This document shows, one piece after another, positions 6,659 through 44,446 of a DNA stretch of 59,159 nt. The first letter of the stretch is position 1. The number at the start of each line of letters is the position of its first letter. Source of the DNA: Porphyridium purpureum (taxonomy: Eukaryota); the NCBI GenBank assembly GCA_008690995.1, contig VRMN01000028.1:1-59159 (forward strand), in the 5' to 3' direction. Both the position numbers and the translations under genes were made by a program. The notes under the pieces were generated by a model, which was given only the letters and a program-made list of their open reading frames with translations, did not search any database and had not been told where the DNA came from.

Positions 6659-9600
6659 TTAGTTGTACGTCAAAACATCTTCGAACAGAGACGGATTCAC
6701 GATGAAGTACCAGTTGCGCGAAGAATTTGTGGAATCCAAGAACGCAGTGATTTTTCCTGTAACATCTTGTGCATGGACCACGGACACAACGTCGGGAGTC
6801 CATTCCGTATGCACAAACACTGGCTTGAGTGTCTAGCATTGACTTGCACATGTCTGACCGCATACATCGTCCGCAAATCGCTGTATTACCAAAGCACTGA
6901 TCGTCTTTGTATGGATTCCAGACGTCAAGACAATTTTGGCTATGAGGATACACTTCCCGTACGCAAATTCCGTGAGGTCTGTCGTTGGATTCCTGATTTC
7001 CACCAAGTCCCATCTTGGACAGCCGTAGTGGTTCGGATATGCTACGATAGTCTCCACGGGAAGGGAGTCCCGCGCTAGTCTTATTTGTCTGTATGCGTAT
7101 ATTTCCACGCTAAAGGAGTTCGCGTCCATCCTGTTCAGCATCACGAATCGACGGAGTTCTTCGTCCACGTTATGCCACAATACTTCGTTTGGGTTGGATG
7201 TACCCACCGGCGTTTCAGCTGGATTCCAGTCTACTGGCATCCATGAGACATCAGGCTGTGTCTGCGTGCTTCCGCATACATCAAACCGAGTGTGCGCACC
7301 CGGCCATTTTCCATACGCTTGCAGATTATCGTTGTTGTTTGTGCCGCCGAACCTGCGCCATACTTGTGTTCCATGTTTTGTGGATTCCCAAAGTTCAGAG
7401 AAAGGTTCCACACTGCTTGTTGAAATTTGGTCGCAACGTTCCGTATACATGTAATCCAGTTGTGTTTCTTCATCCTGCTGAACGCGTCGCATCATTCTTG
7501 AGATAAGATCTCTATGGTTCCACACGCCGGTGGACTTAAAGTGTTCCTTAATTTTCTTGAATGCTTTCTCGCCGTCAGTGGTATCCCAAAATTTCAGGGG
7601 TCCGCAGTCTGCAATGGATTCCGCAAAGTGGGTGAGGGCATGGATTTTTGGTGCATTCCATGGGAGTCCAACGACCTTCTTAAACAAATGAAGGCTTTTC
7701 TGGAGCTCGCGCGCGTGAGTTGCAACCTTTGCAATGTCTTCGCTTTGAAATCCTTCACGATACAGGAGAGTGTATGTTTGGATAGCCTTGCAGCCAAGAT
7801 GGACATATGCCTCGCGAGAAGCGGGCGACAAAATGGACTCCTGGGAAACGACCATGATCATCTGTAAAAGGAATCCGAGTGAGTATGTATGCTCTGCGAA
7901 TTTGGTGAGTTCTTGCAGAAACGGTGACTGACGCATAGGTGTATATACAGCGTGTCGACGATGGAGTCCCTCCGCGAATATTACCCTCGCGATCACTTTC
8001 CACTTTTTACCGGCCCCGGAGTCAATGATGGCGCGCAACTGGTCCGCGCTGCTGCCCTTCCGTTGCGATACTGCGAGTTCGCGGGGCGGGCCAACCACTT
8101 CGGCATCTGGGTCGTCGCCTGATCTACCAGCTGCCCCTTTGCGCTTCTTTGTTTGCCTTGTTGCACATAGATTCCAATTATCTTTTGAAGGTAAATGGCT
8201 TGCAGACATGTTTCCATCGCTTCCATGCACATTATCTGTGTCCGAATTCTCATCGTCTGTATCAAGTGTCCACAAGAGAGAAGATTCTGGATTCTTTGGA
8301 GCACGTTTCTTGGTCTGAAGCGTTGTGAGGCGTTGCATGATCTTCTTAACTTCCGTTTGTGTGTCTGGGCGTGTCAGCAACGCCTTGGGTGCTGCTGCGC
8401 AAACGCCTCGCAACCAGAAAGCAAGGAATCCATGGAGTCCGTCAACGCCGCAGATCTGAAAGCGCCCGCGGGGGTCGAAGCGATTCCATCCCTCTGCAAC
8501 TGGGCGTCCGATAAAGTGGAGACTTTCAGCGCTTCTTTTGGACTCCCCAACTGCGCCGAAATGATTCTTCACAACGTTGAGACTTTCAAGCTCGTTTCGA
8601 TACACAACCGGTTTGGTCGTAACCCAGAAATCATGGATTCTATCCTGGTTGTCATCAGGTGGGTCAATATCAACCGTCGGGCTTCCGACCATACATTGTT
8701 GACATGGCATCTTCTGCCCTCGAGTCCCGGAAATCATTGGAAGTTTCGTGAAAGACATTTTTGCAATCATTGGCATATCCATCGACAGCTTGTAAAACAT
8801 GGGTACGAGCAGAAGCTTCGTATCCCCCAGGTTGACGGGGATTCCCAATACGTTTGCTTTCAGTACATGCCGGAATACCTCGTGCTGGATTCTATGCCAC
8901 AATGCAGAGTTTAACTCATTCTTCAGGTTCTTATCGTCTAGAGACGGATGGGTCTGCCCAACCACCTTCTGCACGGATTCCCTGCTTACGTTAGGAAGGA
9001 AAGTGACCACCGTAGGGTCTCGTACAGAGTCCTTGCCGAACATTTCCCTGTGCATGACACGGATCTGCAGTGGAGTTAAGGCGTGTCGTCCGTTTTTGGT
9101 CATGTGCGCTTCATCTGCAAAGACTTGAATTGGAAGAAGTACAGCTTTTGGCGCGTCTTGGATACCATACCTCGTCTCAATTTCTGCTCGAATTTTTCGA
9201 CCTGCGTTCCTTACAAGGTGTCCGTCCTGCGCGCACACTATTTTGTCAGATGTAGCACCGCTGGATACATCTACGTGGAATGTCCGCAGTCCGTGACGCT
9301 GTATGATGATGGCAGCGGATCTTACTATAATCTCAAGCGGTTCACGATATTGCACCTGCTCTTGGATTCCATTCTCAAGTTGGATTCCGCAAATATTTCG
9401 CCCCTGTGCGAAGGTCACATTCGTCGTGCGTGTTTGTGTGCGCTTGTTCCCTATCGCCTTGGACATCTTTTCCCGTGTTCTTGGATTCCACTGAAGCTTC
9501 GCAGCGAGCTGCATTTCGCGATCGAGCATTTTGGGAATCCGCGCCCTCAACGCGTCGCGTATTCTACAAATGGAATTATCCTGCAATGCCTCACGTCGAA

Positions 9601-10408
9601 GCTCTTCACCGACAACGCTGGTAACTCTACCTAGCGCCCTCCGTAAACATATTCGTAATAGCTTGGATTCCAGCTTCTTCAGTTTCCCCGCTGTTCGACT
9701 TGTGATGCCACAACCACTCATCACAGAATTCTGTGTACATTTAAATCGAAGCATCTCTATGGAATCCTCAACGGCTTGTGTATCACTCGATGAACTCTCA
9801 CTGAAAGCACAAGCGAGCGCTGTGAGCGGATCTTTGGGATTTCGTAGGCGAGTGCGGAGCGATTTCGTTGACATCGTAAACTCCCAAATATCCTGACACT
9901 CTTTGCTGACTGCCTTAAAGCTGGATTCCGCGACATCTTCGTCCAAATCGGTTTCGAACGGATCCTTGCGTGCAACGTCCAGCTCTGTGTCCAATCCATC
10001 TTCGACCGAATCTGGCGCGTGCCCGACATTTGTGGAGTCCCTGTTGCCACCACTGTCGTAACCGTAAATAGACTCTTCCCCATCGTCCATGGAATCCTCA
10101 TCGCTGTTGATGTCGAAGTAGTCTTCATGCTCTCCATTGATGCGCTCCTGGACATTGAGCTCGTTGTGACCGCTGTCATGCGTACATGCGTACGCCGGCT
10201 TCGCGATTTGAGTGGATTCCGCAATCACACGAGCCGATGCTTTGCGGGCCTCTACCATCTCTGGAGTCGGATAAAAACAGAATTTTTTGTGGATTCGCAT
10301 TTCAGCATGCACAAGCTTTTGCGTCTTCCACCGCGTATCCTTGATGCGAAACCCGCATCCTTCGTTGACGCACGGGTGCATGTCACCGAACTCGAATCTT
10401 GTCGCCAT
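6659..10408 (-). pseudogene. Plavaka-like transposase with a premature TAG at 6833-6835; probable start MATRFEF at 10408
   Basis: Motifs LPIQVFADEAHMT, LSMDMP, PCQQC, VDGLHGF, WNAPKIHALTHF..GPLKFWDTTDGEK; the frame continues past the stop (TLKPVF...WYFIVNPSLFEDVLTYN*) and matches the C-terminus of ORF 40227..44093 (WYYLLNPSTFEGVLEYN*). Confidence 0.8.
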
Positions 10409-11101
10409 GCTTTTTCCTTTCGCCCTCCAACAAGTATACTCGCGAGCGCACACGTTCACGCACTCTTGCAGACAAAATTTTAGGCCATGTACCGCGTCGC
10501 GGGATTCTAAATACTGACGGTTTAAGGTTGCGGGACTCCACCATCCGGATGATCCAGTCAGTGGGATTTTTCGCGACGTCCCACAGCTCCTGATGTTGCG
10601 CTCACCAAGCCCGCATTTTTCGGCCGAATGGACAGTGGTCGACTGGATTCCCGTAGATTCGAACGAGCCAACGCATGGCGTATCGCTGCGGACACACAGG
10701 TTTGAGTGCGCTGATGTGCGCACCGGTGAAGGCGACGCAAGAGACATGCGATACATCAGTCTCGCCCGAGAGAGCTTGCGTCTCGCTCGGCGTCCCGAAT
10801 CGCATCTCCTCAGACGAATGAATGAGCTGAGTTGGGTGCCAGCTCGCTGGATTGGGAGTCCACTGTGGTTGAACATGAACCACGCTGTGAGTGACTTATA
10901 CAAGGCCTACCTGGAGGAATCGGAATGCTGAGATAAGGATATCACTGAGCGAGTGGACTCCATCCGACCGATAGAGTGGAAGGCAGTGAGACAAATCAGG
11001 ACTCCCTTGGTCGTAAAGGGTTGACATGGCATTGATGATTCCAGACATGTCCGGGACCTCGAGGCGCGGTTTGTGCAGTGGATTTTGAGCATTGAGATGT
11101 T

Positions 11102-17140: not shown

Positions 17141-18292
17141 TTACTGCAGTATTAATTGTGTGTTGATGACGTTGTGTGCCACGAGGCAGTCTGCGGCAAA
17201 CTGTCCCGCCTTCCCACGAGAAGCACGTACCTTTCGGACTCCATGACAGAACTCCGAACAAGGGCCTCGTCCAAATCGAGCACAACTGGAACCCCATACC
17301 TTTTCGTAACACTCAAACGCGCCACGAACCTCGGCCTTTGGAATCCAAGAATAGTTTGACCACGGATACAATGGATTAGCTTCAACATTCCAACACACTA
17401 AAAGATAGGACTCCATCTTTGCCCATACACGGGTCACGACAACATCAGCTACCGACTCAACCGATGAGACATTCATTGGCACACACTTCAGGCGCTGAAT
17501 TACATGCCCAATGCTTGCATTCTGAGAGACTGTTTTCCTGTCGAAGATGGGATGGGCTAGCAGAATATCATTTGGAATCCCCACGTCTAATGCATTAACT
17601 CTCTCGATACGGCATGGCCAGAAGTTCTTGGAGTCCCAGTCAACGATGACAATCCAGGATGCGCGGTGCCATTCTTTTTCTTCCACACTTTTCCTCTTGA
17701 CGCAATTGAAGGTACAATCATAGGAATCCAAATACAGATCCAAGCCACTTTGGGCGTTGGCCAACGACTGACGTACCCAAGCGATTTCCCGGATACCTTT
17801 ATTCCCGAGTTCCTTTGGCAAATGTACAGCTGGACCAACTCTGGGCTTAGCCAACTCACTGAGCTCGCCGAACTGGGTCCCGCGCACTTCCACTAATTGC
17901 ACCAAACGTTGCAGACTCGACTCCATGTCTCCGACAACGACCCCCAATTGCGTGATCTCGGCCTGTAGCTGAGCCATGCGGTTCTCGGCATACATAGACT
18001 GCAAGGCGTACTCCTGCCTATTGGAATCCCTATCACGCCTGGCCAACTCTGCGGTATTCTGTGCCAGAACTGCAGAGTTCAACAAGGATGCGACCCGTGC
18101 CCGCAAGACCTTATTCTCGTCTTCAGCGGAGACCGCTGGGGACTCCGTCGACCCGCCGGACGAGACTTCGGGACTCCCTATACCGCCCTGCCCGCGGACA
18201 ACATTGCGTCCTTCTCCCGGTTCCATCTTGACTTTGTGTGTAGCTTCACGTACATCACGTACGTGCGCGCACCAGCCCGCAGTTCGGTCCAC
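17141..18292 (-). CDS. Accessory protein of Plavaka-like element 1: coiled coil, PWWP-like region, Cys/His tail; start uncertain
   Basis: Colinear similarity to ORF 35118..36074 (AQNTxEL, EYALxSM, VDW..WPxxIER, LVCWNV..YPW.N.SW, RGxFECYE). Confidence 0.75.
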   Translation of the reverse strand: MDRTAGWCAHVRDVREATHKVKMEPGEGRNVVRGQGGIGSPEVSSGGSTESPAVSAEDENKVLRARVASLLNSAVLAQNTAELARRDRDSNRQEYALQSMYAENRMAQLQAEITQLGVVVGDMESSLQRLVQLVEVRGTQFGELSELAKPRVGPAVHLPKELGNKGIREIAWVRQSLANAQSGLDLYLDSYDCTFNCVKRKSVEEKEWHRASWIVIVDWDSKNFWPCRIERVNALDVGIPNDILLAHPIFDRKTVSQNASIGHVIQRLKCVPMNVSSVESVADVVVTRVWAKMESYLLVCWNVEANPLYPWSNYSWIPKAEVRGAFECYEKVWGSSCARFGRGPCSEFCHGVRKVRASRGKAGQFAADCLVAHNVINTQLILQ

Positions 18293-29435: not shown

Positions 29436-29693
29436 CAGTCCTGGCCAAGATGTTTGCAACACCCTCATAAAAAGTGAAATTCGTGTAAAAGTGAAGAATC
29501 TTGATAGGCAAGGGCATGTTTTGAGCACGCCACTCGATCGCGCGTCCCAAGAAACACTGGGGCGCGTCCAACCGGGAGGGAAAGGCAAGGAAAGAGCGGG
29601 TGGGCAATGGAGACAGCAAAAAGGGGGTATTGGCGAGCGGCGCAGGTTTTGGAATGTGAGAAAGAAAACACGAAGATCAAGAAGGATGAGACT

Positions 29694-30761
29694 TTAGTAC
29701 TTGGTGTGGTGGCCGCGCGCGTCCAGTACAGCTTGAAGACGGCGAGGCATGGACTCTAAAAGTGGAACTACGTACTTTTGGGCCTCGGTCGCCCACGCCG
29801 CAAGGACGGCAGCCTTAAGTTCTGCGACGCGTGCGAACTGGCGGCCTTTTTGGTAAACCACGCGCGGCAAGACGCCCCAAATGTTTTCAATTGGGTTAAG
29901 GTCCAGAGACCTTGCAGGCCACGGCAGCACAGTGACGCCGAGTGCGTCGAGCCACGCCTTGGTCGAGTTGGCCGTATGTGCCGGGGCATTGTCTTGCTGG
30001 AAAGTGAAATTGAAGTCATACATTTCCAGGCCGAACGGAAGCAAGGCTTCCAGCAAGACTTGTTGATACTTCACGGCATTCAAGCCACCCTCGACGAAGA
30101 CGGCCATTGTTAGGCCGCGCAGGGACATACCGGCCCACATGTGAACCTTGCCACCTCCAGATTGCTGGCGCCTGGCGTACGAACTTGACTTGGCGCGACA
30201 GTCGACCCATCGCTGTGAGGAGCCGAACGGGCCATCGCAGCTCCAAATCTTCTCGTCTGAAAAGATCACTTGATGCCAGAAAGCCATTGGTTTCGCAATG
30301 AATGCGGTGGCAAACGCCAATCGCTTGCTGGTGTTGTCAGACGACAGCGAAGGTTTCCGCGAGACTCGCTTGTAGCGAAGAAAGCCTGCTGCTTGAAGCG
30401 TCCGACGCACTGTCCTGGCCGAGCACTGCAAGTGCAGCTCGTGAACCACCTGTCCGGACGTCAGTGCATCAACAGATACGGCGCGAATGGTGCGGCGTTC
30501 CGATTTGCGACTCAAAAGCCGTTTCGGACCTGGCTTCTTGCGGACGATCCGGTGCCCCGTTGGCACAAGAAAATGACTGACAGTTGCATAGGATGGCCGC
30601 GAGCGATCTGGGCGCGTCATGAAGCCTTCGCAATTGCTCGTGCCGACAGCTCCTGGCCCGCAAGGGCGTCGATCTGCCCTTTTTCGTGTTCCGACAGTCA
30701 CGGCGCCATCGTTCGGCCGTTGCGCGCTCAATTTCGATCTGGAGACTCTCCACTTGCGCAC
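29694..30761 (-). CDS. Tc1-like DD34E transposase, copy B
   Basis: Near-identical protein to 18562..19629. Confidence 0.9.
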   Translation of the reverse strand: MRKWRVSRSKLSAQRPNDGAVTVGTRKRADRRPCGPGAVGTSNCEGFMTRPDRSRPSYATVSHFLVPTGHRIVRKKPGPKRLLSRKSERRTIRAVSVDALTSGQVVHELHLQCSARTVRRTLQAAGFLRYKRVSRKPSLSSDNTSKRLAFATAFIAKPMAFWHQVIFSDEKIWSCDGPFGSSQRWVDCRAKSSSYARRQQSGGGKVHMWAGMSLRGLTMAVFVEGGLNAVKYQQVLLEALLPFGLEMYDFNFTFQQDNAPAHTANSTKAWLDALGVTVLPWPARSLDLNPIENIWGVLPRVVYQKGRQFARVAELKAAVLAAWATEAQKYVVPLLESMPRRLQAVLDARGHHTKY

Positions 30762-30988
30762 GACGAGATGGATCAGCGAGCGAAGATCCTTTGAGCACCT
30801 TCTGATGGTCTGGGGAAAACAAAAACGCGCGCGCCGCGCCTTGGTTCATCGTCATGCTCGATGTGAACAATGTTAAAAAAGAGTTAAAAATAAGCTTTCT
30901 ATTAAAATGGGCTATTTTACTATAAGATCCATTTTTTGGACCAAAATGCAGGTATAAACAGTTAATTTCTGTCTCCGCAAACGGTTTA

Positions 30989-31297: not shown

Positions 31298-31593
31298 ATG
31301 TCTCAGTTAAGCGGATCGGCTCTATCCACCCGCGTGCTAGAGGCACGCGAGTTGACGGAAGAGTACAAAGCACAAATGGCAGACAAGGACACGGCGGAGA
31401 TCTTGGAGTCCCTTCAGGTTATGTTCACCGGCGAGATCATCAAGAATCTGGGGCCTGTCGGCCAGTTCTCATTCTACAGGTGGCTTGTAGACAAAGGAGT
31501 CACGATTCCTGAGAAAGACCATGGTGGGAACATAATCCCTGTTCTTTTCCGCCTTTTACCATTGTTGTCAGTCAGCCAGCGGGATCCGGGATC
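31298..31593 (+). pseudogene. First part of copia 2 gag
   Basis: ATG at 31298; rejoins 44449 in frame (DPGS-TSNV) when the insertion and one TSD are removed. Confidence 0.8.
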
Positions 31594-31644
31594 CAGTCCG
31601 TGTGTTGAATATTTGCCCGTACTTTGAGAACCGAATACACCCAG

Positions 31645-31762
31645 GAAAAACTGACCGAAAAACTGACCGAAAAACTGAAATAAAGTGTAAGCAGGCCAAG
31701 ATCAGCTTTTCGGTCAGTTTTTCGGTCAGTTTTTCGGCCAGTTTTTCGGTCAGTTTTTCGGT
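31645..31762. repeat. Left subterminal 12-bp repeat array in both orientations (AAAAACTGACCG / CGGTCAGTTTTT)
   Basis: About 3 forward then 4 reverse units forming an inverted repeat. Confidence 0.9.
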
Positions 31763-31911
31763 TACGCCCATTACATTTAAGCATTACCCATTTATAAATT
31801 ACTTTCTTAGACATTACCAGATTTTAGAAATTACGTTTCGCGACATTACCAGACTTTGAAACCGGAATCTTTATCGGTTCACTTTTATTTCAAATTTGAG
31901 TCCTTACTTTT

Positions 31912-34563
31912 TTAGAAAAACGCATCCACACAGTCGTCGTCGTTGATCTGTCGATTCGCATCTTGTGCAAGATGGAGGTTAATCTTTTTGTCCGTCAGGA
32001 TGTTGATCAATGAAGATTTACCGTATGCAATCACTGCCTCCCACAATCCGCGGCGCAACTCGACAATGTTGTCTGTATCCGTGTTGATATGTACCATCGT
32101 ACTGTCCGAAAGTATACGAGGCATTGAAGCGACAATATTCTGGATGTAAATTTTGAGGCACTTCGCATCCGACAAAAGTTTACGCTGCTCCATCATCCGG
32201 GTCATGCTGTCGTTGACTAAGCATGGATCGAACTCGTCACTTCTCAATCCGGATCTGTACAACATCGTCGACATCGGAAACGGCTTCCCCCACTGACCAG
32301 GTAAAGATCCGAAGTTGATTCTCTTCAGCGCTTCATTGAGACTCGTCCCCTCTCCGAATGTACGAAGAAAGTCGATGATGTTTCCGTGTTCATCAGTGAA
32401 ACGTTTTGTCGATTTCGGATGAAGAATGTAGTTGGTACGCTCTTTCGACTTCAGCATTCGGTAATGTGTGACAAGTCGCCGTGTTCGTAGATTCTGTGCA
32501 CTGCATGTGACTTGAGCTCCATATATGGAACAATCCGGATTGTCTGAATCATGTGTACAGGAAAGCATATACGATAAAACTGTCGTTACGGCTTGCTCAA
32601 AGTTTCGATTGTCCTGACACTCGGTGATCAATACATCTTCGAAGTCATTCGCTGTCCAGGCAACTGATACGGATTGACGAGTAGGCGTCCTTCCGGATCG
32701 AAGCGAACGCATTGTAGCGTAGAGTAGTGCGTAAATCCGAAGTCCAGTTGCGATAAGCTCAACAAATATCCCTGAATTCGCATCTTCGAAATCGTCGAGT
32801 CTGAGAATGTTGAGATCTTTCAGCGGCCTTGGGATGTGCTTGCAGACGAATGTTGCTGGATTCAGGAATACCGGCCACACTTGATGTCCGATTACGCATC
32901 GTGTCACATGGCGAAGAAGCAGGATGGATTTTTGATCGGATGATAAGTTTGTCTCACCGAGAGATTGAAGAAATGCGTATGTGGTTTCGTCATTAGCATG
33001 TGCATTGTTTGGTAAGTGCGCATCGCTGTTTCGCACGTCGAATGTATGCGACAGCAGAATATTTCCAGCCTTCGGTGACTTGAGCGACAAGCCGACGAAC
33101 AAGTTCTTTCGTATCGTCGTATATATCAGGTTCAATGATCGCTCGCGTGCGGCTCTCAATTCGACGACTTGAATCGTACTCAGCTTTGTCATATCCGTAG
33201 GAATGTATGAGTTACACAAATCACCAATCGTGTCTGATGTATTATTCGAATAGTATGCATTGTACCACGCACCGCTCTTTTGCGTGATTGGTTTTGTCAA
33301 ACCTTCGTCGAGCTTTGATGTGGATGAGCATGCCTTGGATTTGGATCGCTGTCTCATCGAATGTTCTGCATACGCTGGTTCGGATACCTTGCGGTTGTCG
33401 TCTTCATTTCTGCTATGCGCATCGAGTGCAGCCAAACATTCTTCGGTGATAGTCAGTGGTACGAGTGGTGCCGCTCCACTTCGAAAAAATGCGAGAAGAT
33501 CCAAATCACAAATGCTGCCTGGAGTGTATGGTTTAATTCGCGACGTGTTTCGCATCTTCAGTTTAGACTTCTGCTTGAACTGTGAACGGGTATTCGATAA
33601 CGTGAGCGCGACCGTTGCATCTGAGTTGGTCATTGTTATTGTCGCAGCGCCGTCGAATACCGGAGTAGGACGATGAGTCTCAAAAACTGCGTCATTCGCT
33701 TGATCCGGATACGTATTATTCGGATTATCATCGCATAATACGTTTGCCTGTGATGGACTTTCATCCTTGTCCATCGGCGACTGCATTACTTCGGTCTCAC
33801 TTTCGCGAAGTGGTGGTAGCATCGGATGTTGCGGATCAACAGTCTGAGGAAGACCAGTGCATTCAATCGCAGCATATGGTGGGAAACCAGCATCGAGAAG
33901 AGTCAATGACTCATACGGTTCGTCATCTGTACTCGCAGAATTCGTTGGTTTGTGTTTGATCCGAGCAGCCGTTGTCGTCGGTGCCCGTGTTTCCGTGTGA
34001 AGCTGTTGAATCCGCGTGGTATTTGTGTTCGTTCTTGTTGCCAGGTTCGCGGATTTCTTTCGACACTTGCGCTTATTCGGATGGTTGAAGGGCGAGTCAT
34101 TGTCTGTATCGTCAATCCTTTGTGTTGCATTCTTTTCTGTTTCGGCGAATGTATCATATGTGTGGTCAGCGCATGTATTTTTGCCGAACAATTTCAATGC
34201 AGCACAGGTCGTATGCATCGTCTTTTGGCATCCATCTGCTAGACATGTGATTGTGTCGTACTGGTCGTCGTCGGATGCGATTGTATTCGACGAATTCAAA
34301 CGACTGCATTCTCCGGATATGTGAACTGCGAAACACGGTTGCCGATCACTGGCGGTAGTGGGTTGAAGAATCGCATCGGTCGACGCCTTGATGTACCGCT
34401 TTCTTTGAGCTGCCTTCCCGGTCTTGCTCGTTATCTTCTCCAAATCCGTGTTCCCTAGCAATGACGGTGCGTCAGCCTTTGACAGACATCCGGATCTTCC
34501 GCGCCCTTTACGCCGCCCTGAATCCACAGTTTCTTTGTACATCCTTTTACCGATTCCGCGCAT
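31912..34563 (-). CDS. Transposon accessory protein, 883 aa, N-terminal PHD-like zinc finger, unknown C-terminal domain
   Basis: Long ORF; C-x8-C...C-x4-C-x4-H-x2-C...C-x2-H at 34162-34335. Confidence 0.75.
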   Translation of the reverse strand: MRGIGKRMYKETVDSGRRKGRGRSGCLSKADAPSLLGNTDLEKITSKTGKAAQRKRYIKASTDAILQPTTASDRQPCFAVHISGECSRLNSSNTIASDDDQYDTITCLADGCQKTMHTTCAALKLFGKNTCADHTYDTFAETEKNATQRIDDTDNDSPFNHPNKRKCRKKSANLATRTNTNTTRIQQLHTETRAPTTTAARIKHKPTNSASTDDEPYESLTLLDAGFPPYAAIECTGLPQTVDPQHPMLPPLRESETEVMQSPMDKDESPSQANVLCDDNPNNTYPDQANDAVFETHRPTPVFDGAATITMTNSDATVALTLSNTRSQFKQKSKLKMRNTSRIKPYTPGSICDLDLLAFFRSGAAPLVPLTITEECLAALDAHSRNEDDNRKVSEPAYAEHSMRQRSKSKACSSTSKLDEGLTKPITQKSGAWYNAYYSNNTSDTIGDLCNSYIPTDMTKLSTIQVVELRAARERSLNLIYTTIRKNLFVGLSLKSPKAGNILLSHTFDVRNSDAHLPNNAHANDETTYAFLQSLGETNLSSDQKSILLLRHVTRCVIGHQVWPVFLNPATFVCKHIPRPLKDLNILRLDDFEDANSGIFVELIATGLRIYALLYATMRSLRSGRTPTRQSVSVAWTANDFEDVLITECQDNRNFEQAVTTVLSYMLSCTHDSDNPDCSIYGAQVTCSAQNLRTRRLVTHYRMLKSKERTNYILHPKSTKRFTDEHGNIIDFLRTFGEGTSLNEALKRINFGSLPGQWGKPFPMSTMLYRSGLRSDEFDPCLVNDSMTRMMEQRKLLSDAKCLKIYIQNIVASMPRILSDSTMVHINTDTDNIVELRRGLWEAVIAYGKSSLINILTDKKINLHLAQDANRQINDDDCVDAFF

Positions 34564-35117
34564 TCTCCAAATCCCTCCGCGTTGTCAATATCCGCGTTGA
34601 CCTCATGCGCATAGACCTTTGTCTTGTTCACCCGGATCCGCGTGCCACCCCGTCAGCGCTTTGTCCCTTCCGTCCCCTCCGCCTTCTCCGCTCCCTCCAT
34701 CCCCTTCGCTCCTGTCTTTCTTCAGCCGGAATCTACATAGTCCCTCCCGCCCTCTGGTCTGCAGATTAGTTTCCTCGCTTGGCTTAATTTGCGCGCGCTC
34801 AGGCAATAAATCATCAAATGATGTTGTTTTATTATAATTTTGAATATGCATGAAAAGTCATCGAATTGTGATGAGGTATCCGGTTCATACTCAAATAGCT
34901 CTTTTTCATCCATAGCCATTCCTGACTTTGATGTGCATGGCTCACTTCGTTCGTGTGACGAAGTCGAGCATGGGCGTGGATCGTATGAAGGTGTCGAGGT
35001 TCGGGCTCTCTGTGCTTGTGTGTCAGAGGTGACGTTGCGCATGCGAATTGTCGGGCTACAACACACGGATAGGAACTGATACGCGGATATGCTGCCGTCT
35101 TACTCCTAAGCCCAGCA

Positions 35118-36074
35118 ATGTCGGATAGTGAAGAAGTCGATCGACTGCGAACGCAACTCGCTTTGGCGCTTAGTTCGAATATCATTGCTCAGAATACTAC
35201 CGAATTGAAGGCACGAGAATATGCGCTTTATTCGATGATCACCGAGTCCAAGCTCATGAGCGTTGAAAAGGAAATTCAAGGTCTGCGGCGTGATATCGAC
35301 GAGATAATCCGAATGCTCCGCGAACGCGAACGAGATCGTATCGCGGATCCGATTGCTGTGCGGGAACCGAGAAGTGGTGAAAACATACAGGGTGCAGGCT
35401 TCAATACGGACGTTATCTGGATGCGTACGTCTATGATCAATGCACAGCGCAATTTATCCGAGTTTCTGTCGCGGATCAATTGCCGTTACATGGCGTGCCA
35501 GAATTCGCATGTGGTTCCCGAATTGGTCATGGTGGATTGGCCAGTGCAACATTCGGATGGATGGCCTGCCAAGATCGAACGCATTGATGATTTGCAGTAT
35601 CCAATTCCTGAACATGTTTTGTTAGAGCATCCGGCATTCGGTGTACGACAGAAGAGCAAGATTCAGCGTATAAGTCGAGTATACGTTCATTTCCAAGGTC
35701 AAGCGTTGACAAGCGATCTGTTGAAGTTCCATCCTCATCCGGATGCATCTACTGTCTGGTCCAATCTTTTATCGTATATTCTGGTTTGCTGGAATGTCAC
35801 GGGGAGCCGTCGGTATCCGTGGGAGAACTTTTCGTGGGTGACAAAGGAAAAGATCCGTGGGGTTTTCGAATGCTACGAATCGACATACGGCTCTGCCTGT
35901 CTTCGTTTCTGTCATTTGTACGGGTTCGATGAGGTGGACACGGATCCTCCCATAGCGTGCTCTCGCGCATGTACACAAGGTTGCCTTCGTAGGCGTGGAA
36001 GAACCTTGCATGATTTCGCGACTGACTGTAAACGCATGCACGATACGTTGATCCGTATGAAATGTAGCCTTTAA
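35118..36074 (+). CDS. Transposon accessory protein, 318 aa: coiled coil, PWWP-like region, Cys/His tail
   Basis: Homologous to 17141..18292; ELVMVDW..GWPAKI and ILVCW..FSWV.KEKI resemble the PWWP strands. Confidence 0.78.
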   Translation: MSDSEEVDRLRTQLALALSSNIIAQNTTELKAREYALYSMITESKLMSVEKEIQGLRRDIDEIIRMLRERERDRIADPIAVREPRSGENIQGAGFNTDVIWMRTSMINAQRNLSEFLSRINCRYMACQNSHVVPELVMVDWPVQHSDGWPAKIERIDDLQYPIPEHVLLEHPAFGVRQKSKIQRISRVYVHFQGQALTSDLLKFHPHPDASTVWSNLLSYILVCWNVTGSRRYPWENFSWVTKEKIRGVFECYESTYGSACLRFCHLYGFDEVDTDPPIACSRACTQGCLRRRGRTLHDFATDCKRMHDTLIRMKCSL

Positions 36075-36138
36075 TAAAACATCTTGGACGAAATCTAGGT
36101 CTACTTCACATTAAAATGTATGCTCATATCGGATCATT

Positions 36139-37173
36139 TCACTCGATCGAATGCGAGTCGTTGTCCAGCATTGCCATATCTTCAGCCAAAGTATCCGCCT
36201 CTTTATACGATTCCGCTGCTGCATTCCATTCGTCCCTGCACTGGTCGTGGGCAAGCGTGAACGCTTCAAAGCTTCCGGATGAAGGTACAAGAACACAATC
36301 CTGGATTATCTTTTTCAATGCAATGTTCGACCTGCTGTAGCGCGTGCCCGGCGCGAGCTCTGCACGGATGACCTGGAGTATGCGGTGCTTGAATCCGATG
36401 AAACTCTTATTATGCTCCTCGGCCAATTCGAAATACTTGCTGGCAAGCTCCGTTCGGAGCTTGCGATTCATCTGACCGATCCTCATCGAGGTCTCTTCCC
36501 CCGTATGCCGCATTCTTGACCATGTCGTTGTTCTACGCGAAATGAGTCCATCCGGTTCGAAGAGAATTCGAAGCTTGATCAGTTCATCCGATATCGTGCG
36601 CACTTGTCCGTAGTCAGCGTATTCGGACATAGCGTCAATATCAGGATCTCTCATACGTTGCTGAAAACCATTGTTGCTCAGATCCTTGGGCTCGACGAGG
36701 ATCTGCCACGAATGCAAGAAATGTGGCGTCGGATTCAACCACATCAATACTTCTGGCACATTTGCAAATATCGCAGCCGTACAAGAATCCGTATGCATCG
36801 TCCTAGTGATTGAATCAATGTATCCGGGTGAGAGCCATACGCGCGGTGGCATTTCCCATGGTCTTGCCGACGTTCGACGGCGACGCGAACCCACCTTGTA
36901 TTCGTCTTCGTCATCTTCCACCGGATTCTCAGCACGACGAAATAGATCCCATGTAAATTCGACAATCGCTGGAACTGCACGAACGAAGTATTCGATGATA
37001 TCATTCATTGCCGGATCATGCTTTTCGTAGTCCTTGAATACATATCGGCTCTGAAACTGGTCCACGATCTGCCGCGTGATACGAATTTGAGCTGCAAAGT
37101 AATGCCATGCGATGTGATAGCGTGCGACCCACAGTCGTGCATGAAGTTCGCTGAATCGATTATACTGGTCCAT
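36139..37173 (-). CDS. Transposon accessory protein, 344 aa, unknown function
   Basis: ATG-initiated ORF with protein-like composition, tightly packed between neighbours. Confidence 0.7.
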   Translation of the reverse strand: MDQYNRFSELHARLWVARYHIAWHYFAAQIRITRQIVDQFQSRYVFKDYEKHDPAMNDIIEYFVRAVPAIVEFTWDLFRRAENPVEDDEDEYKVGSRRRRTSARPWEMPPRVWLSPGYIDSITRTMHTDSCTAAIFANVPEVLMWLNPTPHFLHSWQILVEPKDLSNNGFQQRMRDPDIDAMSEYADYGQVRTISDELIKLRILFEPDGLISRRTTTWSRMRHTGEETSMRIGQMNRKLRTELASKYFELAEEHNKSFIGFKHRILQVIRAELAPGTRYSRSNIALKKIIQDCVLVPSSGSFEAFTLAHDQCRDEWNAAAESYKEADTLAEDMAMLDNDSHSIE

Positions 37174-37197
37174 TCGAAAGCTCCTTCCGTGTTTATC

Positions 37198-39819
37198 CTA
37201 ATCAGCGTGATGGCGCGTTACATCGAATACAGGCCATTGCCTCCTCCATTCAATCACACTTTCTACTCGCACCTGGAACGACGGCCAGTAGGCACAGATC
37301 TCATGGAATGCAGTAATCGTATGCACGCTCGATAGGTACGAACCACTCGGATAACCATTCATTGTATCCATTTCTGGCGAGAAGCTCGTGGAGGTATCCG
37401 AATATTTTCTGAGCACCTGGTCATACGCGAAAACATCAATTTCCTTTGTTTCAGCGAGCAACATTCGCCGCGTCACTTGATTCCGACCGAATCCAACCCT
37501 GGCATCCATCGACCGTTTGTAATACGCATGTTCATATGCTGCTTCGATGCATCGTTGTTCTTGATCACCCCCCATCGTTTTCTTCCGGCACAACAAGAAT
37601 CGATGTGCGTATCGGATGCCACGCAGCACATCCTGAAGAGGATGAACCGGAAGGCGCTCCACAGTGCCAATCGGATTCGTATACACATCTTCGTAAGAGA
37701 AATCATCGCATGAACATCCGTATCGAGAATCACATTTGTTTCCCATCGAAGCCGTATGCGTGTATCGACATGGTCTGTATGCCATACAGGCAAGCGCGCC
37801 TTGGACTGCGCAAGTCACCGCATACCATTCGTTGGCTAGAGATTCAAAGTGACCTAAGGCATCAAATCCACGTCGCATCTCCGCTGGTTGCATTAATTCC
37901 GTATTATCCATCGGATGTGCAAATCGGAGCCTTGCGTACGCATTATTCATATTCAAGGCATTGATACGGATTAGATCCCAGAGCATTGCTGTATCTCTCA
38001 GCATCCATGAAAACATGCCGCTATCCGCTATCGTGAAGCCGGTTGGGTCTGATGGATGATTCATCACCCGAATAATATAATCCTCGGATGCAAACTTTCG
38101 TCCTCGGTAACCCGTCGTCTTCTTCGTCGCCAGGTGGGGTACCTCCTGAATGAGGTACGCACCGATATCCGCGTGCAGGAATTGACAGTCATCCGAAGTA
38201 AACGCGAATTCATCCGTAAAGTATTCGTCTACTGTGTAGTTGCTGAACAGCAGCGCATTCGGAAGCTCTGCACCGTTATAGTCTTCGCGTGGAGAGTCTT
38301 CGCACGGAGTGACTTCGAAAAATTCGAGCCCGGTCAGACCGTCGGTGAAGTTCTGATGCGGATCTTTGTTCTCGAACGACCATGCCGTAAGCATTCGCAT
38401 GTAGAAGTCGACGTTCAGAATCACATCCAAAAGATGCAGACCCACCTTGTCATTTTCCTTGGCCTCTATGTGAATGGCCTTATACGTATTCTCACTTGCA
38501 TCCTTGTACATCGCACTGAATCGATCTATGATGTCGTAATGCGAAAAGCCTCGTCTGATGGACTTAGGTTGCTGCATCGGATGACTGCTTCGACCGAGAG
38601 TGCACGTATCTGTCCGTGCACGCTTCGGATCCTGACGTGAAGCAAATATCCCAGGCACATTTCGGATATCACTTCGAATTTCTCCTCGGATATAGCTAGG
38701 TCCCGGATCGTCTTCGCGGCTGTATGAAGCCGTGTCATACTTGACATTCCCATATCCGCGGGGAATCTGTCCCGGGCGCGGGAGCGAACTGCTTCCTCGC
38801 CTTTCGAATGGCGCACGGTACGTTCCGGATCCAGAACCACTTGGCATATCGATTCTACCATACCCAGGCGGGCCTCGTAGCGTTTTCTGGGTATTCGGAT
38901 TCAGCGCAGCGGCCCCAAGTCGCAGCGAACTCGCCGAATTACTACGGATGAGTCCACCACGAATGCGACGGCTGCGCTCATCAGCATCCGATGCTTCACT
39001 ACTTTCGATCGAATCTGACATTCGTCGTTTCCCTTTGTCAACAGTCGAGACCCTTTTCGATCGCCGAGTATTCGGATTTACGTCAGACTCAGCATGCTGT
39101 CCTGAAGGTGCGTTCGAATCACGCAAATTCGTTTCAGGCGTTCTCTTGACACGCATATCCGTATCCATTTTCGCAGCGTCCAACGAATCTCCGGATGCAT
39201 ATTTCTCTGCACCAGCACCTGCTGCAGGTAGTCCGGTATCCGCTGGAACGTGTCCGCGCAATGCTCTTGCCGACACACTCTGCGAATCCGACGACACAGA
39301 AACCGCGCGAATCGGAGATCGACGGCCAACACTGGACATGGGTGTGGTCGACTTCTTCGCAGTATCCGAAGCCTTTCCCACGATATCGGACGGTTTCGCA
39401 CCGACGTCCTTCACTGGATCCTCCTTCGGATTTGCACCGACGTCCTTCACTAGATCCTCCTTCGGATTCGTCTCCGCGTCCGCGCATTTCGCACCAATCG
39501 GATCACCTACTGCAACCGTCTCAGCTGAAGCCGTAGCTGGCGCGGACTCCGACGGCATTTTTTCCACATCCCTCTCAACTTCATCATTCGGATGACCTCT
39601 GACGGCTGCCTTCAGTTTCGACGATGCTCCACGCACTGCCGAACCCTGACCCGCACCGGACGCACGCCCAGGCTCCACCTTTTTCGTCGCCGCCGGATTC
39701 GTCGCTTTACCCCCCTTGCCCTGCGCACTTCCGGATACCACTTTCCTTCCTTTCGACGGATTCGGATCCGCCACTTTCTTCCCGGTGTTCTCCATCTCGT
39801 CCCGCTCACCACCACTCAC
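37198..39819 (-). CDS. Transposon accessory protein, 873 aa: low-complexity N-half, globular Cys/His-containing C-half
   Basis: Long ORF divergent from the transposase; includes a 12-aa tandem repeat NPKED(L/P)VKDVGA. Confidence 0.75.
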   Translation of the reverse strand: MSGGERDEMENTGKKVADPNPSKGRKVVSGSAQGKGGKATNPAATKKVEPGRASGAGQGSAVRGASSKLKAAVRGHPNDEVERDVEKMPSESAPATASAETVAVGDPIGAKCADAETNPKEDLVKDVGANPKEDPVKDVGAKPSDIVGKASDTAKKSTTPMSSVGRRSPIRAVSVSSDSQSVSARALRGHVPADTGLPAAGAGAEKYASGDSLDAAKMDTDMRVKRTPETNLRDSNAPSGQHAESDVNPNTRRSKRVSTVDKGKRRMSDSIESSEASDADERSRRIRGGLIRSNSASSLRLGAAALNPNTQKTLRGPPGYGRIDMPSGSGSGTYRAPFERRGSSSLPRPGQIPRGYGNVKYDTASYSREDDPGPSYIRGEIRSDIRNVPGIFASRQDPKRARTDTCTLGRSSHPMQQPKSIRRGFSHYDIIDRFSAMYKDASENTYKAIHIEAKENDKVGLHLLDVILNVDFYMRMLTAWSFENKDPHQNFTDGLTGLEFFEVTPCEDSPREDYNGAELPNALLFSNYTVDEYFTDEFAFTSDDCQFLHADIGAYLIQEVPHLATKKTTGYRGRKFASEDYIIRVMNHPSDPTGFTIADSGMFSWMLRDTAMLWDLIRINALNMNNAYARLRFAHPMDNTELMQPAEMRRGFDALGHFESLANEWYAVTCAVQGALACMAYRPCRYTHTASMGNKCDSRYGCSCDDFSYEDVYTNPIGTVERLPVHPLQDVLRGIRYAHRFLLCRKKTMGGDQEQRCIEAAYEHAYYKRSMDARVGFGRNQVTRRMLLAETKEIDVFAYDQVLRKYSDTSTSFSPEMDTMNGYPSGSYLSSVHTITAFHEICAYWPSFQVRVESVIEWRRQWPVFDVTRHHAD

Positions 39820-40226
39820 GCACCCGCACTGTCCACCGCGCTACCGCCCTCTCCGCCTTGTCCGCCTTCCCAGCGCTTCCCACCTTCGCACAACCCACCT
39901 TCTCCGGATCACACCAACTTCCCCACACGATCTGCTCTTCGCCCCACGGCCACTGCGGCCTGCGCGTTTGACTTGTATCGAATTTGATGGACCCAAATGA
40001 AAAAAATGGCAGAATTGAATGGCATGTGGGGTTTTGTCGGGAAAATTACGCATTCACAGAGAGAAAGCTTTATATTAACTACCTCTTTGGCTTGCCGTGG
40101 TACAAACGCTACGCCTGCGTCCAGGAAAGACGCGTGCGTCGGATTGACGGAAGGCTTTGGAGGCGGAACGGATACAGCGTGACGTGCGCGAAAACATACG
40201 GATAGGAAGACTTCCCCAAACCGCGA

Positions 40227-43200
40227 ATGGACAGACAGCAAGGCCTCGAGAGCAACGCTTGGCATCGACGTAGAAACAAACGTATCCGATGCGATGGGAC
40301 CCGATGCGACTTCACCGTACCAGAGGATGAGGGATTGACTTACTCCACGCGACTTCACATGATGCAGTCACACAAGCGCAAGTGTAAACTTCGCATGCAT
40401 CCGAATCGACTCCCGTATACGCAGGCCTACTTATTTGATGCGGACGACGGTAGTTTGCAGAGGGAGGACAGTCCGGATGATACGGGAAGCGCAAATACAG
40501 AAACGCGGACTGGACGAGGCAGTGAGCTTCCTGATATCCGGATGGATGACGAGGACCCGGAAATGCAATTTCATTCGGATCGTGACATTGACAGCGGTTG
40601 CGAGAGCTTGCATGCAAACCTGACACAGGATGCGGAAATGTATCTAAGACCGATGGAGCCGGTGCGTGGCGGAGAAGAAGGAGAAGAGCAAGTCGAATAT
40701 ATCTTAGGTCCGTATGCCAAGCACTTTAATGCGTTATTAAACCAAAAGACTTTACGAGAGCGCTTGCAAGATCGTGACGACGAGATGTCAAAATTCGTAC
40801 GGAGTCTGACAGGCGCGGGTGAAATGGAAGATGTTGATCTGGATGAAGCAATCGAGATGATACGATTTAAAAACGACCAGGAAGTATTCATCCAGAAGCA
40901 TGGGATATCCGTACGTCATGCCACGGACTTAAAGTCGATTGAAGCCAAACTCTTACGAATTGCTATCCGTATGACTCTGCGCCAAGTAAGCCAGCTGACA
41001 AAACACTCATTTACCATGTTGAAAAGGTATCCGTTAAACCACGAGGCGTCTCGAATCGACGCTGTATACGCTGCATTACAAAGCAAATTGAACATAGCTT
41101 CCTCTCACGTGCTGAAACGAGCAACAAAACTTCTTTTCACATTCAGATCTTCGAAGCGGATGTCTTCGCTTCTTGGCAATCCGAGTATTAAACCTGTTGA
41201 GACGTACGTCGAGTATGGTCGCGGAATCCGACTGAGACGAAACACCCTACGCCGGAACGTGAAGCAAACGATCCGATTTCGTGAACCGATGGACATCGTC
41301 ATGCGTTCAGCTGCAGCTATTATTGATGAATACGGATTGGAGCCATTCGTTATCGACTTATTCAAAACCCGGGATCGCGAAATAGTGATGCATCCGCAGG
41401 ATGGAAACCTCTGCATCAGCGCAGCCCGTCGGATAGAATTTGAAGTGAATCGAAAACATGGACCGGATCCACCTCAGGTTGTAATTCTTCCAATACAGAT
41501 ATTTGCGGATGAGTCCCATATGACCCAGAATGGACGACACACAGTGACGCCACTGAAGATACGAATAGTACATCGAAGGCTGTTTGATACACACTCTTCC
41601 CGTATTCCTCAAGTCGTCGCATACTTACCACCTGTGGATACCCGAAGTATTGCACGAGCATTTGGTGAGGAAACAAGTATCCGCATTGATCCGAAGCTAG
41701 CCAAAAGAGAGCTCGAATCGTCCATGTACCATGCAATTATGAATAAGGCATTCCACCATCTCATGATCGCGAATAAATTCGGAGTGCCAGTCCTGTGGAA
41801 TCATCGCCGCTTGCTTCTTTTTCCTATTGCATACAAGTTGTCAATGGACATGCCGATGATCTCAAAATGCTCATTTACGAAAGCTTCTTTTGTATCCGGA
41901 TCCCGTGCTCGAACCATGCCATGCCATCAATGCATGGTGATAGCGCCAGAGGCCACAACTCGAGCAGTCGAAGCAGGACCAAATTCGGATGCATCCAAGG
42001 CAGAAGAGTTCTGGATTACGCGTATTCCTCTGCAATATCGCTGTGAGAAGCAGGTTGAACCTTTCATCACGCAGAATTTATCTGCATGGGGCACGCTACA
42101 GAGAAAAGAACAATCTCTCCACTTTCTCGGTGACTCAGCGGCTATCGGATGGAATCGATTTGATGATGACGATGACGTTGCATTCAATGCAACGATATCC
42201 GCATTCAAACACAAAATACATCTGCGCAACCGCGGGAGATTTCAACTGACAGGCATAGATGGCTTGCACGGATTCCTTGCATTTTGGCTTCGAGGTATCA
42301 CAATCGCTGGTCTCAAAGCATTGCTGAGCAAACCGAATACTGTACACGAGGTAGGCCTCGTCGCTGAGAGACTCACGGAAGCGCAGCAGCGAGCTACGCG
42401 ACACTTGAACGAAGTAGAACATTCGGATTTTCCACGCATGTGGGCTTCACTCGATTTCGATGAACAAAGACATGGAAGTGCATCCGAAGATACCAGTGGC
42501 GATGATTCAGAGTCGCATGACGAATACTCTTCGGATGATGACATTGTCCGCGCGAATGAAAGAAATTCGTCACAAACGAATACACGTCAAAGACCAAAGG
42601 CCAAAGCAAAGACGAACGACTCTCACATCAATCCGAGGAGGGCAGAGTCCAACAGAAAGGGCAGCGTATCTGACCAACTTCGAGGTATCATCGACTCAGC
42701 AGCAGGTAAAGCTTGGAACCAAATTGCGACGGAGATAACGGATGAGGCGAGGTTCCGGCGACCAGCGACATACTCTCCGATACGATTATCTTCGTTTTTA
42801 TCCGACTTACCCAAATTCGCAGAACAATCATATTCGCTGGGCTTTCTACTTCAAATGATTGTTCTTGTACACCAGGAGCATTTACTCTCGGATCGTACAC
42901 GTGAAAGCTTTACCGAACTTGCAACCAGATGTATCCGACTGTATGGCGTACTATACAAAGAAAAGCTGCGTCGACCATGGCTTGAACTCATCCCAAGGCT
43001 CACATCCGACTTGCAATCCCGACTCGATTCATACAAGCGGCAGATCAATCTACGTTGGAATGCTCCGAAAATACATGCACTGTCTCACTTCGGGGACAAC
43101 TTGACGGATCTGGGACCGATAAAGTTTTGGGATACTACGGATGGAGAGAAATCGTTTCAAATCGACAAGGCGTGGTTCAAATCACTGGTCAGCGCAGATA

Positions 43201-44093
43201 CGAATATCCCACATAATGTCATGCTGCAGCGCGCAGAGGTGTTCGAAATCGGATCTTCTTCTTCGTACTGGTTTGATAAGCTTGCAAGGAACAAGGATTC
43301 GAATGCAATTGCATACACACACGAACAAGTATCCGATGAAGCATACACACATACACGAGAATCGGATGCCGCTCGAGCGTGGTACCGGCACCGCTCGTCT
43401 TCTGTGAACTGTTCATCGATCCTTTTCGGAATCTGGCAGAACGCGTGCACTACTCTGAGGTACAGCAGCGAATCCGGATTCGAGGCTGCCCCTTCATGGC
43501 GACCAACATCGTGGAACCCTTCTATATCATTCGAATCCGCTGATGACGAAGAAACGAACATGCTCTGGTTGCACACGGATACGGCTTTGAAGACGTATGC
43601 ATCCGAGAAACTCCAAACGGCTGTGAATGATGGTACTGCAACCTTCCAAGCTTTCAGACAAGTTCAACTGAAAAAGCCTCGCGACGAAGCCGAATGCATT
43701 GTTGCACATCCGAATCACTATCGTTCTCCGAGATGGGACATTCTCGAATACGCACTACAAACTGGTCACCCTGAACGCCACGGATATGGAAAATGCATCC
43801 TAATTGTCCGGATCAAATTACAGGGACCTTACGACGAATCCTTTGACGTGGTGGTGATACAAGATTTAGAGGCGCACGATGGAGAAATCGAAAAGTCAGA
43901 GTGCAAATGCAAATGCAAGCGCCTAGATCCGGTGTTTCATCATTACCGACTCAGTAATAATTCGGTAAAAGTATTGGACACAGAAACGATAACCGGGCGA
44001 GTGACAGCATTCAAGGATATCCGCATGAAGGACAGCCGATGGTACTACCTTTTAAACCCAAGCACATTCGAAGGCGTACTAGAATACAATTAA
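40227..44093 (+). CDS. Plavaka-like transposase, intact, 1288 aa
   Basis: ILPIQIFADESHMT, LSMDMP, PCHQC, IDGLHGF, WNAPKIHALSHF..GPIKFWDTTDGEK match the Plavaka pattern as I recall it (D..DxP..CxxC..DxLH..PKxH..H..G....T..E); N-terminal C-x4-C..H-x3-C. Confidence 0.82.
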   Translation: MDRQQGLESNAWHRRRNKRIRCDGTRCDFTVPEDEGLTYSTRLHMMQSHKRKCKLRMHPNRLPYTQAYLFDADDGSLQREDSPDDTGSANTETRTGRGSELPDIRMDDEDPEMQFHSDRDIDSGCESLHANLTQDAEMYLRPMEPVRGGEEGEEQVEYILGPYAKHFNALLNQKTLRERLQDRDDEMSKFVRSLTGAGEMEDVDLDEAIEMIRFKNDQEVFIQKHGISVRHATDLKSIEAKLLRIAIRMTLRQVSQLTKHSFTMLKRYPLNHEASRIDAVYAALQSKLNIASSHVLKRATKLLFTFRSSKRMSSLLGNPSIKPVETYVEYGRGIRLRRNTLRRNVKQTIRFREPMDIVMRSAAAIIDEYGLEPFVIDLFKTRDREIVMHPQDGNLCISAARRIEFEVNRKHGPDPPQVVILPIQIFADESHMTQNGRHTVTPLKIRIVHRRLFDTHSSRIPQVVAYLPPVDTRSIARAFGEETSIRIDPKLAKRELESSMYHAIMNKAFHHLMIANKFGVPVLWNHRRLLLFPIAYKLSMDMPMISKCSFTKASFVSGSRARTMPCHQCMVIAPEATTRAVEAGPNSDASKAEEFWITRIPLQYRCEKQVEPFITQNLSAWGTLQRKEQSLHFLGDSAAIGWNRFDDDDDVAFNATISAFKHKIHLRNRGRFQLTGIDGLHGFLAFWLRGITIAGLKALLSKPNTVHEVGLVAERLTEAQQRATRHLNEVEHSDFPRMWASLDFDEQRHGSASEDTSGDDSESHDEYSSDDDIVRANERNSSQTNTRQRPKAKAKTNDSHINPRRAESNRKGSVSDQLRGIIDSAAGKAWNQIATEITDEARFRRPATYSPIRLSSFLSDLPKFAEQSYSLGFLLQMIVLVHQEHLLSDRTRESFTELATRCIRLYGVLYKEKLRRPWLELIPRLTSDLQSRLDSYKRQINLRWNAPKIHALSHFGDNLTDLGPIKFWDTTDGEKSFQIDKAWFKSLVSADTNIPHNVMLQRAEVFEIGSSSSYWFDKLARNKDSNAIAYTHEQVSDEAYTHTRESDAARAWYRHRSSSVNCSSILFGIWQNACTTLRYSSESGFEAAPSWRPTSWNPSISFESADDEETNMLWLHTDTALKTYASEKLQTAVNDGTATFQAFRQVQLKKPRDEAECIVAHPNHYRSPRWDILEYALQTGHPERHGYGKCILIVRIKLQGPYDESFDVVVIQDLEAHDGEIEKSECKCKCKRLDPVFHHYRLSNNSVKVLDTETITGRVTAFKDIRMKDSRWYYLLNPSTFEGVLEYN

Positions 44094-44184
44094 AAGACAA
44101 AGTCCGATGAAGTCTCATCTTCTCATGATTGAAATTATTCGCTACCACCCATCTCGCAAACTTTAAAGTTGCAGACAGTATCGA

Positions 44185-44426
44185 GCAGTTTTTCGGGCAG
44201 TTTTTCGGGCACTTGATTTTGCAGCCTTTCTTTATTGCCTAGTAAATCGCTGTACGCACGGAAAGTCTACTGTACCTACAGTTTTTCGATCAGTTTTTCG
44301 ATCAGTTTTTCGACACTTCAGTATGACAGTTTTTCGAACGCTGCGAGAGAGGTACAGCAAATAGCTGTACTTTACATGCTTACATCAATTTCAGTTTTTC
44401 GTTTAGTTTTTCGGTCAGTTTTTCGC
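44185..44426. repeat. Right subterminal repeat array (CAGTTTTTCG core)
   Basis: About 9 units in clusters at 44185-44210, 44279-44337 and 44392-44425. Confidence 0.88.
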
Positions 44427-44446
44427 TCCATTTGTGTCACGGACTG

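Follow-up and report, generated by a model that had tools for sequence, protein, structure and literature searches.

Short DNA words that run through coding DNA in all reading frames and alter protein sequence are known from bacteria, as DNA uptake sequences and as HIP1 in cyanobacteria. In transposons, what is known of self-recognition comes mostly from flowering plants, with the motifs in non-coding repeats or element ends. Both VANC and TnpA bind motifs that are specific to the family and lie in their own elements, and both depend on motif density (PMC5735166, 10.64898/2026.08.24.746577). The VANC motifs of Arabidopsis VANDAL elements are described as longer than the word reported here (9 bp for VANC21), clustered, in one orientation and mainly in non-coding tandem repeats, and the authors argue that they are not attributable to simple substitutions (PMC5735166). 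TnpA of Spm/CACTA elements is reported to bind and demethylate the termini while internal methylation stays mostly unchanged (10.64898/2026.08.24.746577). Here we analyze a 59,159-nucleotide stretch of the red alga Porphyridium purpureum (contig VRMN01000028.1 of assembly GCA_008690995.1, referred to as the window) and describe a DNA transposon, element 2, whose genes are saturated with the word CGGAT/ATCCG. A homologous transposon in the same window, element 1, carries a different word, GGANTCC.

Element 2 resembles the VANDAL/VANC system in being a DNA transposon with accessory genes and a dense, family-specific short motif that differs between related families (PMC5735166, PMC10398659). As in that system, the motif is concentrated in the element and infrequent elsewhere, on the basis of two families in one window. 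Unlike the VANC motifs, the word is 5 bp long, dispersed in coding DNA on both strands, spaced out, not arranged in tandem repeats and imprinted on the proteins. Family searches with the genes of element 2 gave no DUF1985 or DUF287 match, and no motifs were placed in non-coding tandem repeats as in VANDAL. VANDAL elements are Mutator-like, whereas element 2 is EnSpm/Plavaka-like, and no VANC homology was seen. The Spm/CACTA system is alike in its broad superfamily, in family-specific motifs, in the motif density that TnpA needs and in subterminal arrays, which element 2 also has (10.64898/2026.08.24.746577). The difference is that the word fills the interior of element 2 and is absent from the tested ends; no TnpA family match was found. 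Red-algal Plavaka elements are likewise large EnSpm-type elements with three accessory genes, PAG1-3, proposed there to bind or modify their own DNA (10.1101/2025.02.11.637652). In that account PAG1 and PAG3 have no Pfam domain, and PAG2 has PF01555 and SET domains, for which no gene of element 2 gave a match. The proposed PAG3 target is a tandem array beside the gene, unlike the dispersed coding sites of element 2 (10.1101/2025.02.11.637652). The bacterial systems are genome-wide, whereas the word here is limited to a single transposon family and changes from one family to another. We found no description of this element, or of motif saturation over a coding body, in the literature searched, with most subscription papers and Repbase outside the search.

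The enrichment of the word is real and well controlled. Between 31850 and 44100, 154 sites were counted against 38.8 expected under a first-order Markov model (z 18.5), making the word the top 5-mer. All but 11 of the sites lie inside the five open reading frames (ORFs) of the element, where synonymous-codon shuffling predicted 56.2 instead of the 143 found (z 15). In each of the five ORFs separately, the count was not reached by 300 synonymous and 300 codon-order shuffles (p 0.003, the floor of the test), while none of 11 other ORFs tested in the window gave p <0.08. The sites lie in all three reading frames and on both strands. One-kb bins held 8-16 sites in all 12 bins from 32001 to 44000 and 0-5 in the remaining 48 bins, and the density was about 13 per kb in element 2 compared with about 2 per kb in host DNA. 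The outermost sites, at 32046 and 44019, both fall short of the element ends, and the tested non-coding ends (31640-31911 and 44094-44440) held none. The original prediction, made by eye, had reported a density of CGGAT/ATCCG on both strands of all five ORFs that drops in the flanking copia, and these results bear it out, including its exact count of 15 sites in 39001-39780 (10 + 5). Its expectation of 1.5 for that segment assumed uniform bases, and a fair enrichment over the element is 2.5- to 4-fold. It had named codon or dinucleotide bias, and enrichment running past the element boundaries, as grounds for doubt; both were examined and neither refutes the enrichment.

These controls also bear on the possibility that the word is a leftover, from the composition of a former host, from decayed tandem duplications or from codon-pair preference. 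The GC content of element 2 (46-57%) is somewhat unlike parts of the window, and the word occurs in a 36-bp duplication within gene CD. That duplication is the single short tandem repeat in the coding body, and a tandem-repeat origin of the sites was rejected on this count. The enrichment survives the codon controls, extends to the two larger spacers, which hold 6 sites in 554 bp and 4 in 431 bp, and two relatives in one genome have different words. A leftover is therefore very unlikely and largely refuted.

The sites avoid one another at short range. Neighboring gaps of 5-23 bp were found 9 times against 31.7 expected, a deficit reached in 0 of 2000 random placements, and the coefficient of variation of the gaps was 0.77 compared with 0.93. 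Counting all pairs, 11 lay 6-23 bp apart against 35 expected (z -4.1, the lowest among 35 frequent 5-mers, for which the median was -0.55), and pair counts were back at expectation from about 31-40 bp. Helical phasing of about 10 bp was suggested by eye and was unsupported on test; long-period signals were weak and scattered.

The word has also left a trace in the proteins. When the residue order of the five ORFs of element 2 was analyzed blind to any motif, the top three of all 5-mers were the word and two variants that differ from it in the middle base (z 5.0-5.4). The residue order of the proteins of element 1 ranked GGANTCC first (z 9.2). As the word family can be recovered from amino-acid order alone, the word has shaped protein sequence. 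The test is weak on single proteins. One metagenomic transposase, P0011, favored a gapped 3+1+3 word (z 7.1 against a null of 4.6), a different word that is as strong in residue order as the word of element 1. The residue order of P0012 weakly favored a word related to that of P0011. Eight relatives (P0002, P0008, P0009, P0012, P0013, P0014, P0018 and P0022) were marginally above 95% of the null for at least one word class and were left uncounted because three of four controls were also marginally above the null. P0010 gave no word in this test.

The word is most likely the binding site of a sequence-specific protein, encoded by the element, that would coat the element's own copies and keep them out of silent chromatin. 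We give this reading a probability of about 0.5. The spacing and the protein imprint fit a sequence-specific protein acting on the element. Sites would be gained one at a time by point substitution, some with an amino-acid change; we infer such an origin from the dispersed, unrepeated sites in coding DNA. Selection among element lineages would then keep them, the density of sites separating self from host DNA. A second site under one protein footprint (about 25-30 bp) would add little, which could produce the short-range gap in spacing, as saturation by a bound protein would. The protein that reads the word would be one of the products of genes A, B and CD or the transposase, and the PHD-like and chromo-like parts described below would tie it to chromatin. 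By analogy with VANC and TnpA, the purpose would likely be self-marking and resistance to silencing. A more specific form of this proposal is a family barcode in the element's own genes, in which an element-encoded reader drives the word to saturation over the coding body, at one site per footprint and despite amino-acid changes, with its own word in each family. We regard the barcode as possible and put it forward tentatively.

Several results weigh against binding by an element-encoded protein. Family searches found no DNA-binding domain in the genes of element 2. A five-base word has little specificity on its own, and an amino-acid change for one site in 150 needs strong selection or mutation pressure. 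The spacing deficit was measured against uniform placement, which is not codon-aware, and CGAAT near CGGAT was not avoided (17 against 19.0 expected at 6-12 bp, 26 against 29.9 at 13-23 bp). In the protein-level test, the transposase of element 2 alone did not yield its own word, and only P0011 among 10 relatives clearly showed one. The comparison of words at the DNA level covers two families in one window. Finally, neither the CpG ratio nor the differences between copies gave any sign of CpG methylation from which element 2 would need to escape.

The variant CGAAT/ATTCG, to which the original prediction had extended the enrichment, was indeed in excess in the ORFs (103 against 59). It was weaker than the word, however, and significant by synonymous shuffling in only three of the five ORFs. 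Since it is enriched and not avoided near CGGAT, CGAAT does not act as an equal site. Among the 15 one-base neighbors of the word, z exceeded 1.5 only for the three middle-base changes (7.0, 2.4 and 2.0). Flanking bases were uneven: position -3 was A, and position -2 was T, in 73 of 154 sites each, and G was rare. This bias suggests a loose dyad around the CpG, as for a dimeric reader.

The CpG in the word had led to the proposal of a link to methylation, for which we found no footprint. The observed/expected ratio of CpG was 1.25-1.47 across element 2 and at least 0.9 throughout the window. Of 10 inferred C>T or G>A differences to a second copy, only 1 fell at a CpG. In one DNA run (X1), 336 changes included 112 C>T/G>A and 90 A>G/T>C. 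The literature searched held no report of 5-methylcytosine or N6-methyladenine in Porphyridium. Silencing may take a form other than DNA methylation; silencing of transposons by trimethylation of histone H3 lysine 27 (H3K27me3) in C. merolae is cited in a preprint on Bostrychia (10.1101/2025.02.11.637652).

A DNA-modifying or repair activity, encoded or recruited by the element, could instead push the sequence toward the word or shield existing sites, so that the word would build up by drive and not by selection for binding. The amino-acid imprint and the indifference to frame and strand are expected from mutation pressure, which would also explain the amino-acid cost more easily. HIP1 in cyanobacteria and very-short-patch repair are proposed precedents for word build-up by drive. 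Both words, in our judgement, look like methylase recognition sequences, and a putative N6-adenine methylase and a 2OG oxygenase have been described in red-algal Plavaka elements. Ten of the 12 outer-position neighbors of the word were also under expectation. No single source word was drained, however, the lowest of these 12 neighbors having z -2.4; the product of CpG deamination stood at 34 against 38.8. Part of the deficit among the neighbors arises because the shuffle keeps codons. No gene of element 2 matched a methylase, SET or oxygenase family, and context-dependent mutation alone predicts no exclusion zone of 25 bp, though a bound enzyme could cause one. We consider drive of this kind, a family-specific bias, the main alternative to binding, though rather doubtful. 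If true, it would mean that a transposon carries a sequence-specific mutation or repair bias of a new kind.

The two elements of the window differ in their words. The ORFs of element 1 held 37 GGANTCC sites against 7.4 expected and 14 CGGAT sites against 12.7, while those of element 2 held 3 GGANTCC sites with about 4 expected. This agrees with the original prediction that GGANTCC is not prominent in element 2 and that two homologous elements, with transposases 35% identical, carry different words. It had attributed the difference to family-specific co-evolution of a DNA-binding protein and its sites. The spacing and imprint fit the sequence-specific protein in this proposal, while no DNA-binding protein was identified and two families cannot show co-evolution. 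If an element-encoded protein reads the word, its specificity would have changed between families, and the change of word from family to family suggests that the element itself carries the reader. Another explanation is that the words are sites of host proteins, such as transcription or chromatin factors, with a different host factor recruited by each family. Short GA-rich words are typical of plant-type factor sites, and the element's own genes revealed no reader. However, neither word was enriched in the one host gene or in the other ORFs of mobile elements that were tested (CGGAT in 0 of 9), and a reader that moves with the element accounts more simply for a change of word between related families. 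Recruitment of host factors is quite unlikely.

The barcode proposal, if true, would make coding DNA the carrier of a self/non-self code, comparable at the scale of a transposon to bacterial uptake sequences. Filling coding DNA with sites under a spacing rule, at a cost to the protein, would be a different solution to self-recognition from those of flowering plants. It would give predicted protein-DNA pairs with switched specificity, and Porphyridium is a transformable alga. The pattern would also provide a purely computational signature by which such systems may be found, even from protein sequences.

Table 1 Features of element 2 and of the related element 1 in the window.
Feature	Position	Strand	Remark
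Element 2, DNA transposon, 12,853 bp	31594..44446	.	near one end of a copia retrotransposon (host of the insertion)
Target site duplication, 2 bp	left 31592..31593; right 44447-44448	.	sequence reading and contig joint
Terminal inverted repeat, 9 bp	left 31594..31602; right 44438-44446	+ (left)	sequence reading
Left subterminal arrays, 12-bp unit in both orientations	31645..31762	.	unrelated to the internal word CGGAT/ATCCG
Right subterminal arrays, 12-bp unit as at left end	44181..44425	.
Field of 154 CGGAT/ATCCG sites (84 +, 70 -)	32046..44023	.	about 1 per 80 bp, under-dispersed
Gene A, 883 aa	31912..34563	-	weak N-terminal PHD-like finger; uncharacterised conserved C-terminal domain
Gene B, 318 aa	35118..36074	+	N-terminal coiled coil; possible chromo-like domain
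Gene CD, ORFs of 865 and 344 aa	36139..39795	-	disordered N-terminus, Cys/His-rich middle, no known domain
Transposase, 1288 aa	40227..44093	+	EnSpm/Plavaka-type motifs across 10 aligned sequences
Element 1 transposase	6833..10380	-	carries GGANTCC, 28 sites against 5.5; 35% identical to that of element 2
Element 1 fragment homologous to C part of gene CD	10518..10931	+	tblastn E 1.3e-5
Element 1 gene B	17141..18226	-	homologue of element 2 gene B; 9 GGANTCC sites against 2.5

The span of element 2, first given as 31850..44100, was confirmed in its body and extended at both ends to 31594-44446. Contigs from four of four DNA runs joined 31591 to 44447, and loose contig ends, whose flanks differed, stopped at 31594 and 44446. 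The contigs without element 2 may represent other copies of the surrounding copia element. The 12-bp subterminal repeats likely form a separate system for transposition. About 31 extra bases were present at 44285-44286, in the right array, in other copies in three of the four runs, so the subterminal arrays vary in length. The three homologues from our first search were all annotated P. purpureum proteins. Near-identical element 2 proteins were found on up to six contigs, three of them possibly one locus, which suggests that the family has likely spread recently. A sister family about 85% identical to element 2 at 35886-37852 was observed in contigs from the same DNA runs. The lineage has at least six clusters of transposases in P. 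purpureum.

Element 2 appears to be EnSpm/Plavaka-like, and we did not assign it as a member of either group. The transposase shows the D, C(2)C, D-x-x-H, H(3)H, E pattern given for EnSpm, Plavaka and their kin (PMC12730594). In an alignment of 10 sequences, D220, C248, H629, H633 and E653 were invariant and C245 nearly so (numbering of the aligned piece). These residues, the inverted termini of 9 bp and the 2-bp target duplication agree with the CMC/EnSpm type, for which the duplication is 2-3 bp. The termini (CAG..CTG) did not match EnSpm proper, which has CAC..GTG with a 3-bp duplication, and were also unlike those of fungal PlavakaA (TGT..ACA) and PlavakaB (CATCA..TGATG); hence the label. 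A profile search with the transposase gave 13 matches, which belonged to other P. purpureum families or to metagenomes, apart from one remote protein. The transposase had no direct match to PF18759 (Plavaka). P0018, one of 11 relatives scanned against this family and the weakest of the 13 profile matches, scored E 1.3e-5 with 25 bits against a cut-off of 26.3. No relative was found among the 220 and 181 pattern matches of the metagenome scans or the 14 of the viral scan. Plavaka has been placed only in Bangiophyceae and Florideophyceae in an account whose main text does not name Porphyridium (10.1101/2025.02.11.637652). Our results add a unicellular red alga to the range of EnSpm/Plavaka-like elements that carry accessory genes.

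The five ORFs first counted in element 2 are probably four genes. Those at 37198-39795 and 36139-37173 are in frame across a single stop at 37198-37200, where three of four DNA runs have a different base and P0005 reads through, so gene CD is probably split by one in-frame stop in this copy. Gene CD matched nothing in the domain-family searches or the Atlas. The PHD match of gene A (E 0.038) was under the cut-off. Its conserved domain is 48% identical to P0007, a protein of a third family. The structure model of gene A was unusable (predicted local distance difference test, pLDDT, 30), and its Atlas matches, at up to 0.81, are leads only. Gene B is 30% identical to gene B of element 1. A helix at residues 3-75 was predicted at pLDDT of about 80, consistent with a coiled coil. 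Its Chromo_MIT1 match (E 0.057) was under the cut-off, and the chromodomain rows of the structure search were all non-significant. Residues 220-257 were predicted as strand-strand-helix (pLDDT about 55); Foldseek gave no match at E 0.001, and a wide search was confined to the coiled coil. NCBIfam and PHROGs gave no matches, and sequence searches of the PDB gave nothing useful.

Element 1 retains gene B and a fragment of the C part. Within 10380-10931, the C-like fragment was observed about 160 bp from the likely start of the transposase, with no room for the D part, and the annotated N-terminus of the transposase is the antisense of this fragment. P0029, identical to the element 1 transposase, was rejected as an independent copy: its contig has element 2 genes a few locus tags away, and it may be the same locus assembled again. 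A 3.9-kb stretch (a non-LTR (long terminal repeat) retroelement and one end of element 1) occurs twice, at 2674-6555 and 55273-59159, with 94% identity. The second copy is cut off by the end of the contig, so either element 1 may form a tandem repeat or the contig may be mis-joined.

Other repeats were observed in the window. Sixteen copies of a 111-bp unit make up 1-1777, by eye a Sel1-like repeat gene. At 49505-51136, two ORFs without a Pfam match look by eye like a tyrosine-recombinase (Crypton-like) gene that is broken. Nested elements occupy 18333-30953, where two inverted Tc1/mariner copies (97% identical) lie around a gypsy element and a HEAT-repeat gene; the gypsy element has near-identical LTRs, and the first Tc1/mariner copy interrupts element 1. 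A milder excess of one 4-base palindrome was found in the copia element at 11374-16600 (29 against 11) and in the gypsy element at 20026-24900 (17 against 6.9).

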